Sequence record: NC_028925.1
Source: Escherichia phage vB_EcoM_VR25
Length of the DNA stretch: 64,000 bases
Direction: 5' to 3' (one strand)
The notes beneath the pieces are model-generated. The model saw only the letters and a list, made by a program, of their open reading frames with translations, was not told the DNA's origin and searched no databases. Shown here piece after piece: positions 39,055 to 45,803 of this stretch (its first letter is position 1; every line of letters starts with the position of its first letter). The translations under genes and the position numbers were made by a program.

Positions 39055-39080
39055 AGGTTTCCACATCTCTACTACTTGAG

Positions 39081-39088
39081 TATAAATA
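39081..39088 (+). promoter_or_regulatory. Late promoter box TATAAATA upstream of the HNH endonuclease gene
   Basis: Exact TATAAATA 27 nt upstream of the ATG at 39115. Confidence 0.55.
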
Positions 39089-39114
39089 TAGTATATCACC
39101 AAAGAGGACATACA

Positions 39115-40954
<1,840 letters not shown>

Positions 40955-40958
<4 letters not shown>

Positions 40959-41491
40959 ACACCAAGCTCCTTATAAAGTTCTTCGCGACAAGTTTTCAGA
41001 ATTTTACCAGTTTCATAAGCTGTGCTTTCAGAAACATCACCAAGTGCAGCGGCAGCTTGCATTTGGCCATGGCGTTTAGCAGCATATTCAAAACTTTTTA
41101 CTAGCTCACGAATACGTTCTTTTTCATTGTATTCTTCAATAAATTCTGGATATTCCCAAACAGGTCGCATCATACGATACCACAGTTGGATGGTAATATA
41201 ATTACTTCCATCCAGATTAATAATTTGTGAAGGCTTAATAGCGCCAGGAGCATAAAAAGTTACCTGTCTTACTACATCAATACCATCCACAATAGCCCAA
41301 GCAAAATCGAAGGTGGCCTTCTTTTCAATTGGCGTGCTCGCACAAGACCCTAACTTTAAGAGCTTTTGTAATACAGGAGATTTAACTCCTGAAATGTACA
41401 CAGGATTAGCTACAAAGCTGTTATCACGTAATGACATAATAGTTTCCTCAAATATTTTATAATCCGTGGGAGCATTATACTCTGCTCCCAA
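40955..41491 (-). CDS. Hypothetical protein (178 aa)
   Basis: ORF between pseT.1-position gene and spanins. Confidence 0.6.
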
Positions 41492-41602: not shown

Positions 41603-41896
41603 TCAATCATGACAACGCTCCTCTTTTAGTTCAGAACGATAATAACATAACATACCTTTTTGGTCATGTACATATCTTTTTACATCATTCATCCAAATCC
41701 GGAATTCTTGCGATGCTTCAAAAGGCATACCAACCCATGGTTGACCGTCAATTACCTTCACTTCCCATTGCTGACGGTATTCCATTAATGTCTGTGGCCA
41801 ATTAGGATGAACTTGAATTGTGGGCTCCACAACGGGCTTCTGGGCGCATGAAACAAGTCCAATAGCCAAACATACTGCCATGATAGATTTCATCAT
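41603..41896 (-). CDS. pseT.2: Outer-membrane spanin (Rz1-like lipoprotein)
   Basis: Signal peptide with lipobox GLVSC; follows i-spanin with 4-nt overlap. Confidence 0.7.
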   Translation of the reverse strand: MMKSIMAVCLAIGLVSCAQKPVVEPTIQVHPNWPQTLMEYRQQWEVKVIDGQPWVGMPFEASQEFRIWMNDVKRYVHDQKGMLCYYRSELKEERCHD

Positions 41897-42246
41897 TTGG
41901 TGAGCTCCTGGAAGTCCTGGGCGAACTTATCAAATGACTGGTTAATTTGTTTTTCAACTAATTTAGGCTTAGCTGCCACAACCTTAGTACGTTTTGCATC
42001 TGCACGAAGTTTATCATTTTCCTTCTGCAGAAGTTCAACATATTCCTGGCGCTCCTGGTCAAGGAGATTAATTTGATTGACCTGGTCTTTTATTGATTGC
42101 AGATTTTTCGCGTTATCTTCTGCAACTTTGGTGACCGCAGCCACCTCTGTCTTGAGATTATCCACTTTTGCTTTTAGATAGAAACCACTACCAGCAGTTA
42201 CTACCAGGGCGAGCATAAGCCCCGCAGTGATATTACTTATTTGCAT
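41893..42246 (-). CDS. pseT.3: Inner-membrane spanin (Rz-like)
   Basis: N-terminal transmembrane helix then coiled-coil-rich periplasmic domain. Confidence 0.7.
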   Translation of the reverse strand: MQISNITAGLMLALVVTAGSGFYLKAKVDNLKTEVAAVTKVAEDNAKNLQSIKDQVNQINLLDQERQEYVELLQKENDKLRADAKRTKVVAAKPKLVEKQINQSFDKFAQDFQELTK

Positions 42247-42740
42247 AACTTGATGATTACCTCAACAATATCATCCTGGGATAAACCATTCAGGAGGATG
42301 TGATTTGTACTGTCAGATGCTGAAATGCGGAACTGATTACCAACTTCATCCGCCATATCATCCTGGGTTAACACTGGGTGCTTAATTCCCAGGCGGTGTT
42401 GAAGTGTCAGGGGTTCAACCACAACATAACAAACACATCCATTGATATGCACATTAGGTTGGGTCTGATTGATGAACACTTCTGCATCATATTTAACCAA
42501 ATGGTTCTTTAAGAAGTCAACCATTTCAGGAACAGATTCATGAAGGGCTTCTTTCCGCTCTTCTGATTTCTTATTGCGATATTCCTTCTGTTTGGTCTTC
42601 AACTTATTATCAGACGCCAGTTTCTTTCTTAAGTCAGTAAGGAACCCAACATTTTTGGAACCTTTATAAACATAGATTCCGTCATGGCGGTCACCATATA
42701 CATCAACAATCATATCATTTGAAATCAGTTGCATATTCAT
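42237..42740 (-). CDS. alc: Probable Alc (host transcription shut-off) protein
   Basis: Internal start 42740 (GAGGA RBS) gives 167 aa, the length I remember for T4 Alc, in the slot between pseT.3 and rnlA; assignment by position and size only. Confidence 0.5.
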   Translation of the reverse strand: MNMQLISNDMIVDVYGDRHDGIYVYKGSKNVGFLTDLRKKLASDNKLKTKQKEYRNKKSEERKEALHESVPEMVDFLKNHLVKYDAEVFINQTQPNVHINGCVCYVVVEPLTLQHRLGIKHPVLTQDDMADEVGNQFRISASDSTNHILLNGLSQDDIVEVIIKLCK

Positions 42741-42750
42741 AATATTTTCC

Positions 42751-42984
42751 TCAATAGCGGTTATAACCTCTAGGACCAAAAGAGTTTGCACCCAGGCGCT
42801 CATCTTTCTTTTTGGCTCTTGCTCTAAACCCAGAATCACCTGTTTGGTCTTTCAGTTCTTTTAACAATTTGGCCTTCAGGTCAGTAATGAAACCAATCCG
42901 GCGGTCTCCCTTGTAGACATAGATTCCATCATTTCTGTCACCATATGCCTTTGTAACTCTGTCATTTGAAATTAAGTTTAACAT
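42751..42984 (-). CDS. Small protein paralogous to the N-terminus of the adjacent Alc-like protein
   Basis: MLNLISNDRVTKAYGDRNDGIYVYKGDRRIGFITDLKAKL vs MQLISNDMIVDVYGDRHDGIYVYKGSKNVGFLTDLRKKL; GAGGA RBS. Confidence 0.55.
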   Translation of the reverse strand: MLNLISNDRVTKAYGDRNDGIYVYKGDRRIGFITDLKAKLLKELKDQTGDSGFRARAKKKDERLGANSFGPRGYNRY

Positions 42985-43032
42985 GTTTTGGTCCTCATCA
43001 GTAGTTGATGGAACCATTATGTATAGAAAGAA

Positions 43033-43050
43033 GGGGCTTGTACACCCCTT
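43033..43050. terminator. Hairpin / terminator after rnlA
   Basis: GGGG-CTTGTACA-CCCC stem flanked by A/T runs. Confidence 0.5.
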
Positions 43051-43054
43051 TTTA

Positions 43055-44191
43055 TTATTCAGGCATGATTACATCCGCTTGGTAGTCCGCTGGGATGTAA
43101 AGTTTATGATTTTTAAGGAAAACATTATTGATTTGAGCGATAGTTTGCTCTGTTTCCTGGGGACGTTGATATGTGTTCATTAATACAGAGAACAAACCCG
43201 GATATGGTTTACACAGTTCTTGACCTTTAATCGCAAACTCGCGTCGGTCTTTTCCTGCCAACTGTTTCTGGGCATCAAGCAACAGTCCCAGGGTATTGGA
43301 CAGATAATCCAGATGGGTCAAAGTAAAGGCATTAACTTTTTCACGAGCATAATCATCGCCAGTAAACATGGCAATAACATCATCTGCACCGCCTGCAACA
43401 ACAACTTCAAAAAGACGCTGGTTATTGTTAACAGAATCCTTTGTATGGTGTAAAGCACAATACCATTCTGTCTTAACTTTAAATTTGCGACCATCGACCA
43501 GCTCATAGACAAAGCCTTCAATCTCTTTCATATCACGGACGTTTTCAATTGTAGCCGGGTCATATGCTTCAACCAGGAATGGACGAAGCGCTGCATCTTT
43601 AAACAAATCCTGATAAGGGATATATTCACCAGTTTCATTATGGCGAACGTTCAGTAAAATCAGGTCACGTTCCTGGTAAGGCAAAACAATGCGGTTGGTT
43701 GGTGCAACATATTCCATATTGCATGTATAACCAGCTTCAGTAATTTCAGTTACACGCTCACGGAAAGCTATACGGTGTTCTTGTTTGAATACCTGCAGGG
43801 CTTCTGCTGCCTGGGAGCTTTTGATTGACCCTTTGGATTTAAAAGCAATATTGGTCTGGTCCATATAAGTGGAGACAAGAGAGCCATCAGCCTTGGTCAT
43901 GACCAGCGCAACTTCATCCATATTGATATTCATGGTCAACGGATTTTCGCCCAAGTTAAAGAACTTTTCCATAGGACGAGCCGCAATACGAACTGGACCA
44001 TCTGCATCCATTTCAAACATAATGCCGCGACATTCAAGTGCATCATCAAGGAGCCAATCACTATAGGAAGCATAGTTATAGCTAAAGATACGGAACTTAG
44101 TTTCAAATGGAGAAACGAAATCAGTATAGAAAAACTTACCTTTTTCAGATTCAGCGCACAGCTTCATTAAGTTGTCATATAATTCAATCAT
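43055..44191 (-). CDS. rnlA: RNA ligase 1
   Basis: 378-aa ORF; ...RIFSYNYASYSDWLL.DALECRGIMFEMD... matches remembered T4 Rnl1. Confidence 0.92.
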   Translation of the reverse strand: MIELYDNLMKLCAESEKGKFFYTDFVSPFETKFRIFSYNYASYSDWLLDDALECRGIMFEMDADGPVRIAARPMEKFFNLGENPLTMNINMDEVALVMTKADGSLVSTYMDQTNIAFKSKGSIKSSQAAEALQVFKQEHRIAFRERVTEITEAGYTCNMEYVAPTNRIVLPYQERDLILLNVRHNETGEYIPYQDLFKDAALRPFLVEAYDPATIENVRDMKEIEGFVYELVDGRKFKVKTEWYCALHHTKDSVNNNQRLFEVVVAGGADDVIAMFTGDDYAREKVNAFTLTHLDYLSNTLGLLLDAQKQLAGKDRREFAIKGQELCKPYPGLFSVLMNTYQRPQETEQTIAQINNVFLKNHKLYIPADYQADVIMPE

Positions 44192-44604
44192 TTCTTCACC
44201 TTATGTTGGTAGTTCCACGGGGGATTAAAAAGCTTTATGAACATCGGCTCTTCCAGAGACATAGTTTCGACTGACATCGTACCAAGCTCATTGGTCATTG
44301 ACAGATTGAAACATTGTCGTGCATAGAATACCACCTTTTTACCTGCTTGTAAAGCCTCATGAATCATCCGGGATTTGTTTGAATCACTCGTTTGTTCTAT
44401 ACGATTGATTGCAGTCCGGTAATAATTGATTCGCTTCTTCAGGTTGTTCGTCTTACCAATATACACTAGTTCGTCGTCAACTGAAATAGCGTAGATAACA
44501 TTTTTCTTGTTCGCGAGTGTAAGGGTAGGGATTTTACCATCGACTAACTCTAACTCCGCATATTTTATAAAACTGTATTCGTCAGCGATTTGTTTCATAG
44601 ACAA
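44188..44604 (-). CDS. denA: Endonuclease II (GIY-YIG family)
   Basis: 138-aa ORF with VIYAI...VYIGKT GIY-YIG motif, T4 position. Confidence 0.85.
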   Translation of the reverse strand: MSMKQIADEYSFIKYAELELVDGKIPTLTLANKKNVIYAISVDDELVYIGKTNNLKKRINYYRTAINRIEQTSDSNKSRMIHEALQAGKKVVFYARQCFNLSMTNELGTMSVETMSLEEPMFIKLFNPPWNYQHKVKK

Positions 44605-44624: not shown

Positions 44625-45803
44625 TTATAGATATTTACGGAAACCAGCAAGAACATTCTCATCGACGTCATTGTCAATCTGGGCTACCAGGTAAGCGGAC
44701 AACTCAACTTCTTGTGGCGCAGATTGCACATTATCAGAATTGAGATATTCGCGAATCCATGGAATCGGGTGCTTAGTAGATTCTAACACGATTTCACAAG
44801 GGAGACCGCATTGCTTCATACGAGAAACTGTCAGGTAATCGATGAACCGGTTAAGAATCTCGACGCTCAGCCCGGGGAGTCCACCATCTTTAAACAGATG
44901 CACAGCCCATTCTTTTTCCTGGCGATTGACTTCCATGAAAATAGCTGCGGCTTCTGCTTCACATTCTTGAGCGATTTTAACCCATTCATCACCGTCAACA
45001 CCAGTCTGCAGCTGACGAAGAATATATTGGGTCCCCTTAAGGTGAAGCTGTTCATCACGGGCGATGAACTTCATTATCTTCGCATTGCCTTCCATGATTT
45101 CCATGTTCTTATGGAAGTTGAAAGTACAAGCAAAAGATACATAAAAACGAATTGCTTCCAGGGCGTTAATGACATGCAGGCAGAGATAAAGAGATTTCAT
45201 CAATGCTCGTTTGGCAATAGCTTCTTGTTTGATAGCTCGTTCCAAACGTTGGTCCACTTCGGGAGTTTCTTTGGCCAGTTCAACAAAAGCAATCTGGTTT
45301 TGCCATTGACGAGTTTTATTCAGAACATCATCATAGTAATAGCCAATTGATTCGGCTCGCTTCATGATTGCATCATCTAACAGGATTTCGTCGAATACCT
45401 TCGCCGGGTCTGTATAGAGATTTCGCATGATGTGTGTATAAGAACGAGAGTGAATTGTCTCGCTGAATGTCCAGGTCTGAATCCATGTATCAAGACTCGG
45501 GTCAGAAACTAATGCGGCTAATGCTGCAGCTGGAGCACGACCCTGGATACTATCCAGAAGTGATTGGTACTTCAGGTTATTGGTAAAAATATTTTGTTGA
45601 TGTTCAGGAAGCTTATTAAATTGAGCTCCGTCCATCATCAAGTTTACTTCCTCGGGCCGCCAGAAAAATGATAATTGCTTTTCTGTTAATTCTTCAAAAA
45701 CTTTATGACGCTGGATATCATAACGAGCGATGCCCAATCCTGAACCAAAAAACATCGGCTCGGCTAAAACATCCACCGGAGTGGTATTAAAAACTGTACT
45801 CAT
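44625..45803 (-). CDS. nrdB: Ribonucleotide reductase small subunit (uninterrupted)
   Basis: 392-aa continuous ORF; no intron. Confidence 0.95.
   Translation of the reverse strand: MSTVFNTTPVDVLAEPMFFGSGLGIARYDIQRHKVFEELTEKQLSFFWRPEEVNLMMDGAQFNKLPEHQQNIFTNNLKYQSLLDSIQGRAPAAALAALVSDPSLDTWIQTWTFSETIHSRSYTHIMRNLYTDPAKVFDEILLDDAIMKRAESIGYYYDDVLNKTRQWQNQIAFVELAKETPEVDQRLERAIKQEAIAKRALMKSLYLCLHVINALEAIRFYVSFACTFNFHKNMEIMEGNAKIMKFIARDEQLHLKGTQYILRQLQTGVDGDEWVKIAQECEAEAAAIFMEVNRQEKEWAVHLFKDGGLPGLSVEILNRFIDYLTVSRMKQCGLPCEIVLESTKHPIPWIREYLNSDNVQSAPQEVELSAYLVAQIDNDVDENVLAGFRKYL

Follow-up and report, generated by a model that had tools for sequence, protein, structure and literature searches.

A truncated, conserved paralog of the Alc N-terminal module is encoded directly upstream of alc in Gaprivervirus phages

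Phages of the genus Gaprivervirus carry, immediately upstream of the transcription terminator gene alc, a 77-codon gene whose product matches the N-terminal module of Alc and ends in a conserved tail of its own. The intact reading frame, the pattern of codon substitution and the presence of the gene in divergent lineages together make it very probable that this gene, alcB, is genuine and under selection, a truncated paralog of alc. With confidence somewhat short of even, we propose that AlcB, expressed together with Alc, modulates Alc-dependent host shut-off in the manner of a microprotein and is not a second terminator.

The alc locus and the identity of its 167-aa product

The window, by which we mean the whole 64,000-nucleotide stretch of Escherichia phage vB_EcoM_VR25 DNA analyzed here (NC_028925.1), shares 99.0% identity with Escherichia phage vB_EcoM_VR7 over a 1.3-kb stretch around the alc pair. 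The same stretch is 92-99% identical to 32 phage records, and every taxonomy line checked among these records reads Gaprivervirus (Straboviridae, Tevenvirinae). The gene order around alc is that of T4, with all relevant genes on the minus strand:

44625-45803, minus strand: nrdB
44188-44604, minus strand: denA
43055-44191, minus strand: rnlA (gene 63)
42751-42984, minus strand: alcB (VR7ORF243c; 'alcb' of SP18), 77 aa, truncated Alc paralog
42237-42740, minus strand: alc, 167 aa, predicted from T4 Alc to encode the inhibitor/terminator of host transcription
41893-42246, minus strand: pseT.3 (i-spanin)
41603-41896, minus strand: pseT.2 (o-spanin)
39754-40662, minus strand: pseT, separated from pseT.2 by two small ORFs

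The coordinates and lengths given for the pair in a preliminary description of this DNA are right: alc is 42237-42740 (167 aa) and alcB 42751-42984 (77 aa), both on the minus strand. That description had also called the larger ORF Alc-like, and our analysis bears this out. The 167-aa product matches Pfam ALC (PF17527) along its full length (E=4e-51, 173.5 bits where the gathering score is 25, with residues 1-166 aligned to 1-176 of the 177 profile positions), also matches, at E=4e-75, PHROG 1253 ('inhibitor of host transcription'), and shows 56% identity to the T4-type Alc cluster (P0019) across 99% of its length. Its gene lies between rnlA and pseT.3 as in T4-type genomes, an order found also in RB32 and JS98, so that profile, position and identity all identify it as the ortholog of T4 Alc. 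Alternative starts exist for both genes, and some GenBank records adopt them, giving a GTG-started 200-aa alc or an 88-aa short ORF; the GAGGA Shine-Dalgarno sequence found about 7 nt before the ATG in both alcB and alc, together with the family N-terminus, supports the 167-aa and 77-aa starts as the probable ones.

The Alc protein of T4 is a site-specific terminator that causes premature termination by Escherichia coli RNA polymerase on cytosine-containing DNA only, and the paf mutations that block its action map to residues R368 and P372 of the RNA polymerase beta subunit, near the entrance to the main channel (PMC2988021, PMC2939025). In toxicity assays in E. coli, T4 alc causes a drop of about 4 logs (bioRxiv 10.64898/2026.09.14.751387). 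A sequence search found no solved structure of Alc, and NCBIfam holds a model for neither Alc nor AlcB. In an AlphaFold2 model built from a 24-sequence alignment (mean pLDDT 92.9, pTM 0.71), Alc consists of an N-terminal module with a helix (residues 8-15) and a beta-hairpin (23-26/29-33), one very basic helix of 47 residues (34-80) and, at the C-terminus, an alpha/beta domain (87-166). The best structural match of the C-terminal half is the DNA-binding domain of T4 MotA, on which two methods agree, albeit at a sequence identity of 12-14% and with modest scores.

Within alc, the first 42 codons (window positions 42615-42740, minus strand) are more variable among Gaprivervirus isolates than the rest of the gene (pS 0.30 versus 0.10) and fall into two allele classes, MNMQLISND..SKNVGFL and MDMQLISNE..TKKIGLM. 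This pattern suggests mosaic recombination inside the gene.

AlcB shares the N-terminal module of Alc and has its own tail

In a single BLASTP comparison, residues 2-63 of AlcB aligned with residues 3-62 of the neighboring Alc with 31/62 identities (50%) at E=3e-15. Searched on its own, AlcB matched Pfam ALC with 37.1 bits (cut-off 25; E=3e-9) at profile positions 3-62 of 177. These two scores rule out a low-complexity or chance similarity. The preliminary description had reported that the 77-aa product repeats the first 40 or so residues of its neighbor; the pairwise alignment upholds the similarity but extends it to about 62 residues. All of the residues that are invariant across the Alc N-terminal module (I6, G16, D20, G21, I22, G32, D36 and L37) are kept in AlcB. 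The AlphaFold2 models of both proteins have the same helix, beta-hairpin, helix fold in this module at a pLDDT of about 90 or more, the elements in AlcB, whose module spans residues 1-48, being a helix at residues 7-14, a hairpin at 22-32 and a second helix at 33-48 (pLDDT ~90).

AlcB thus has in common with T4 Alc the first ~60 residues, the family-invariant N-terminal residues and the predicted fold, but it lacks what corresponds to residues ~65-167, namely the remainder of the long helix together with the domain that resembles the MotA CTD. The C-terminal alpha/beta domain of Alc, with its invariant QPNV, Y105 and G118 positions, has no counterpart in AlcB, in which nothing aligns with Alc residues 80-167. 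On its sequence, AlcB is a domain-level relative of Alc and not a full member of the family. Since AlcB lacks this part of Alc and ends in a novel motif, termination activity cannot be assumed for it.

Residues 49-77 of AlcB form a basic, 29-residue tail that is modeled with a pLDDT of ~53 and is probably disordered when AlcB is alone. In the window the tail ends in R-L-G-A-N-S-F-G-P-R-G-Y-N-R-Y, and the motif R-x-G-x-N-[ST]-F-G-P-x-G-x-N-[KR]-[FY]-COOH is present in all four AlcB lineages, even though these are only ~47% identical. The motif is absent from all Alc proteins compared, has no match elsewhere in the window and has none in Pfam, NCBIfam or the PDB. A tail that is conserved and, as described below, strongly constrained indicates that AlcB goes beyond a passive duplicate of a docking domain. 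In sequence terms, this constraint argues against a passive decoy, one of the roles that the preliminary description had raised.

The pair was already present in public annotation. The GenBank record of SP18 (GQ981382, 2010) names the two genes alca and alcb and notes the latter (ADO19581.1) as 'similar to N-terminal region of bacteriophage JS98 Alc', and PHROGs holds a dedicated family of 77 positions, phrog_17715. AlcB of the window matches PHROG 17715 over all 77 residues and all 77 profile positions (E=3e-54), lies immediately upstream of alc and has the C-terminal G-x-N-[ST]-F-G-P; it is 100% identical to VR7ORF243c, and all belong to the same family. The RefSeq entry for VR7 (YP_004063924.1) calls this protein 'inhibitor of host transcription', a label that, judging from the sequences, is carried over from Alc. 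Other records list alcB as hypothetical, and that of phage EAWsc9 calls it a 'PRC domain-containing protein', a label for which neither Pfam nor the predicted fold gives any PRC-barrel support. Our search of the literature found no work on the function of alcb or on domain mapping of Alc.

Distribution of alcB

The pair seen in the window recurs in relatives, in 15 of 15 Gaprivervirus loci and in the metagenomic contigs L015, L016 and L017. In these three contigs a 77-78-aa ALC-domain ORF lies between rnlA and alc, and the Alc proteins are 79-80% identical to that of VR7. The AlcB proteins of the divergent lineages are only 45-50% identical to that of the window, yet length, frame and Shine-Dalgarno sequence are kept, and indels are in frame. 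A profile search yielded a fourth divergent variant (P0036). By contrast, alc directly follows rnlA, with no alcB, in RB32, in JS98 and in the contig group L018-L020, whose Alc is 63% identical. The occurrence of alcB in Gaprivervirus and a few close uncultured lineages, and its absence from these others, date the duplication to the ancestor of the former.

A tblastn search of the phage collection with AlcB matched 789 records, only 33 of which cover at least 80% of AlcB; every one of these ~33 with checked taxonomy is Gaprivervirus. The matches fall at 823 places in the 789 records, a surplus of 34 that points to ~34 records with two copies. Among 1.84 billion cluster representatives, a profile search with AlcB gave only eight matches, which comprise AlcB, ordinary Alc proteins, the frameshifted protein P0038 and one 2398-aa protein matched over seven short stretches, the last likely a compositional artefact. 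Apart from P0038, no further stand-alone Alc N-domain was found among these representatives. A scan of IMG/VR returned two loci, both of them known Gaprivervirus genomes.

Two of the variants retrieved are altered proteins. P0038, from Escherichia phage vB_EcoM-G28 (YP_010069786.1), is a T4-type Alc of 63 aa that is frameshifted after residue ~48, leaving about the same N-terminal module as AlcB; either a natural mutation of alc or an error in sequencing may account for it. P0002, a 75-aa metagenomic AlcB variant from an ENA contig, has a wholly different C-terminus after residue 55, probably through a frameshift.

Probable origin of alcB by tandem duplication

In the window, as in L015, the ATG of alcB stands 244 nt from that of alc; the spacing in L017 and the SP18-type phages is 247 nt. 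A distance of 244 nt equals the 13 nt of the alc 5' untranslated region plus 77 codons. In addition, the 16-mer TGAGGAAAATATTATG (42738-42753, minus strand), which begins with the alcB stop codon TGA (42753-42751) and ends in the alc start, is identical to the alc 5' untranslated region and start codon in the alcB-less contig L018. The spacing and this identity support the proposal, made in the preliminary description, that a partial tandem duplication gave rise to a stand-alone N-terminal module. The simplest reading of the sequence is a tandem duplication of the 13-nt leader and the first 77 codons of alc, in which the frame of the upstream copy would run into a TGA inside the Shine-Dalgarno region of the second copy.

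At the DNA level alcB and alc are ~70% identical over the first ~110 nt and share no long identical tracts, which indicates that the duplication is old and was not homogenized by conversion; recent gene conversion between the copies is ruled out on the same ground. The protein similarity fades after residue ~62 of the BLASTP alignment, and the last 15 residues of AlcB have either diverged past recognition or been remodeled. In a comparison of 46-residue N-domains, AlcB was 50-67% identical to many Alc N-termini, that of its own neighbor included, so that this comparison does not separate the possible origins. The shared tail and the 16-mer at the junction favor a single local duplication over acquisition of the alc of another lineage.

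Selection on alcB

The comparison covered alc and alcB of the window and of 14 further Gaprivervirus loci (n=15). The alcB gene was intact in 15 of 15, with only six variable residue positions, and the annotated alcB frame was the only one open in all isolates, since all others on both strands carry stops. Pooled Nei-Gojobori dN/dS was 0.115 for alcB and 0.105 for alc. Because the pairwise sums behind these ratios share phylogeny and are not independent, a site-wise count of codons is the more conservative measure; with each variant codon of alcB counted once, 15 were synonymous and 6 non-synonymous (binomial p=2e-6), against site totals of 51 and 180, respectively. Constraint was strongest in the tail (about the last 28-29 codons), where 10 variant codons were synonymous and none non-synonymous (p=3e-7) and where dN/dS was 0.035 at a pS of 0.176. 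The dN/dS values and the conservation across lineages rule out a pseudogene or remnant. Among the isolates, alcB alleles occur in every combination with those of the alc N-terminus, and this free reassortment gives no signal of pairwise co-evolution between the two genes. A tight AlcB-Alc heterodimer might have produced such co-evolution.

Expression signals upstream of alcB and alc

Three candidate signals lie between rnlA and alcB:

43031-43050, minus strand: terminator-like hairpin, AAGGGG-TGTACAAG-CCCCTT followed by a T-rich tail (scan and fold)
43016-43045, minus strand: promoter-like site of the T4 early type (consensus scan, 9/12 match)
42990-43015, minus strand: predicted RNA hairpin GGUUCCAUCA / UGAUGAGGACC, pairing the alcB Shine-Dalgarno GAGGA (42996-42992)

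The terminator-like hairpin directly follows the stop codon of rnlA (43055-43057) and is overlapped by the promoter-like site, which consists of a -35 element G-TGTACA (hexamer 43044-43039), a spacer of 17-18 nt and a -10 element CATAAT (43021-43016), with A-rich DNA upstream. The match is weak alone, and such sites in the region are not above shuffle expectation; the case rests on position. At the same place we found GTTTAC-18-TAGTAT in L015 and GTTTAC-18-CATAAT in L017. In the alc-only phages RB32 and JS98, GTTTAC-18-TATAGT or TAGTAT stands directly upstream of alc, and in L018 GTTTAC directly follows rnlA. The GTTTAC-18-TATAGT type of pattern is one that we take to be the T4 early promoter. 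Given that the putative promoter is at the same place in alc-only phages, alcB appears to occupy the ancestral position of the alc promoter and leader, with alc now the second cistron.

The 96-nt segment containing both the Shine-Dalgarno-sequestering and the terminator-like hairpins folds with a minimum free energy of -24.9 kcal/mol (z=-3.6), and a 54-nt window with the sequestering hairpin alone gives -13.2 kcal/mol (z=-3.7). In L015, L016 and L017 the sequestering stems are longer and of different sequence, with a dG of -18 to -22 kcal/mol (z -5.6 to -7.0). The -10 element of every lineage falls within the 5' arm of its stem or right next to it; in the window it abuts the arm. Transcripts from this putative promoter would lack the 5' arm and be translatable, and read-through RNA from rnlA would be masked. 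Masking of the Shine-Dalgarno sequence in read-through RNA is used by the T4 genes e, soc and 49 and by I-TevI. In phage EAWsc9 (locus L007) the alcB Shine-Dalgarno sequence GAGGA is changed to GCGGA.

At the other end of alcB, the stop codon TGA overlaps the Shine-Dalgarno sequence of alc (GAGGA, 42752-42748), which stands 7 nt ahead of the start codon of alc (ATG at 42740). Such an overlap allows for translational coupling of alc to alcB.

Possible roles of AlcB

The two-module architecture of Alc, the MotA-like C-terminal half and the make-up of AlcB as the N-terminal module plus a new tail underlie our proposal that AlcB is a modulator. MotA consists of an N-terminal sigma-binding domain and a C-terminal 'double-wing' DNA-binding domain. 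Its N-terminal module is unrelated to that of Alc, and the two proteins act differently, MotA by activating middle promoters and Alc by terminating elongation, but the likeness of the C-terminal domains suggests, by analogy, that Alc too may combine a docking module with a DNA-sensing module, of which AlcB would have only the first.

In the scheme that we propose, a tandem duplication of ~244 nt in the phage from which Gaprivervirus and some of its uncultured relatives descend would have produced alcB as a functional early gene. The upstream copy would have kept the ancestral early promoter and leader, and alc would follow 10-13 nt downstream in the same transcript. Through the shared N-terminal module, AlcB may dock on the partner of Alc, either the paf site of the RNA polymerase beta subunit or Alc itself, and its tail may add a specific extra contact. 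Docking would then tune the amount or timing of Alc-dependent termination, in a direction that could be up or down. The N-terminal module of Alc might alternatively be a DNA- or self-association element and not a contact with RNA polymerase.

Truncated paralogs that act on the larger regulator from which they derive are known as microProteins or dominant-negative forms, examples being Id proteins against bHLH proteins and LITTLE ZIPPER against HD-ZIPIII. AlcB resembles these in being small, in deriving from the assumed interaction module of a larger regulator, in lacking the effector domain and in its predicted co-expression with the parent. It differs in that it has a conserved tail of its own, which classic decoys do not need. 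Because both genes would be expressed from one putative promoter, a constitutive antagonist would require differential stability or stoichiometry. Should AlcB merely fine-tune the dosage of Alc, it would be a tidy but minor phage example of a microprotein-style regulator.

The tail also fits another activity, and the constrained motif is at least as well explained by an independent function as by simple competition. AlcB may be a neofunctionalized effector of RNA polymerase, in which the N-terminal module delivers the tail and the tail acts independently on the polymerase or on an associated host factor, to do what Alc does not; AlcB would then be a second host-takeover factor in its own right. 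We regard this, the foremost of the alternatives, as possible, although unlikely. The tail is the most constrained segment of AlcB, its motif persists in lineages that have otherwise diverged by half and is foreign to Alc, and a segment predicted to be disordered alone is typical of short linear binding motifs. However, a motif that lacks a match in the window, Pfam, NCBIfam and the PDB leaves the target without a name, and the tight operon link and the overlap of the alcB stop codon with the alc Shine-Dalgarno sequence suggest that the two genes share a function.

A third explanation is prompted by the phages in which alcB occurs. Gaprivervirus is the one Alc-bearing genus of the Tevenvirinae that is reported to lack dCMP hydroxymethylase (PMC12115623, PMC8056088), and two papers conclude that it must carry a base modification of an unknown kind. 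Consistent with this, VR7 has neither gene 42 nor beta-gt between uvsX and 42.1/imm (NC_014792, 24132-25345; L023, 10133-11346) and carries in place of gene 42 a 167-aa hypothetical ORF, VR7ORF049c, yet it retains the gp56 dCTPase, Alc and DenA. AlcB could thus be an obligate partner, the Alc-AlcB complex adapting template discrimination to a genome without the hydroxymethylcytosine pathway, as the confinement of full-length AlcB to this genus (~33 records of the phage collection, wherever taxonomy was checked) and the location of both genes in one predicted, possibly translationally coupled transcript would allow. We consider this doubtful. The correlation amounts to a single evolutionary event, the metagenomic contigs with alcB are too short to show gene 42, alleles of alc and alcB do not co-vary, and the Alc of Gaprivervirus appears from its sequence to be conventional and is strongly conserved.

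A bolder form of the same idea, which we hold to be more doubtful still, is that AlcB evolved as a specificity switch for a modification-sensing terminator and so enables a T-even phage with Alc to do without hydroxymethylcytosine. AlcB bound to the polymerase or to Alc would, by way of its tail, re-set the templates on which Alc acts and spare the differently modified or unmodified DNA of the phage. The way in which Alc detects unmodified cytosine by means of RNA polymerase has been a puzzle for three decades. An N-terminal module that nature has set apart, and that is predicted to fold independently, gives a means of working out which half of Alc docks on the polymerase and which reads DNA, a use to which the likeness to MotA adds, and the restriction of alcB to the one Alc-bearing T-even genus reported to lack dCMP hydroxymethylase provides a testable link to the unexplained DNA-modification puzzle.

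Finally, it is very improbable that alcB is a non-functional leftover, whether a decaying duplication or a leader ORF of which only the act of translation matters: translation across the stop codon overlap could by itself drive that of alc, and the C-terminus of the P0002 variant is altered, but selection on the amino acid sequence is as strong as on alc while synonymous sites vary freely, the gene is intact and length-conserved in 15 isolates and at least three divergent lineages, and conservation of a 15-residue motif at the C-terminus is not to be expected of a leader ORF.

Genes next to the alc region

Between pseT and the spanin genes, the window (40659-41491, minus strand) encodes a 99-aa ORF (PHROG 2364) and a 178-aa ORF (PHROG 4482), neither with an assigned function. 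The small ORFs at this place differ in SP18 and in the L015 and L016 contigs, which marks it as a variable slot. A MobE-like homing endonuclease ORF (39076-39840, plus strand) corresponds to VR7ORF236w in the VR7 record; its 3' end overlaps that of pseT, on the opposite strand, by 87 nt.
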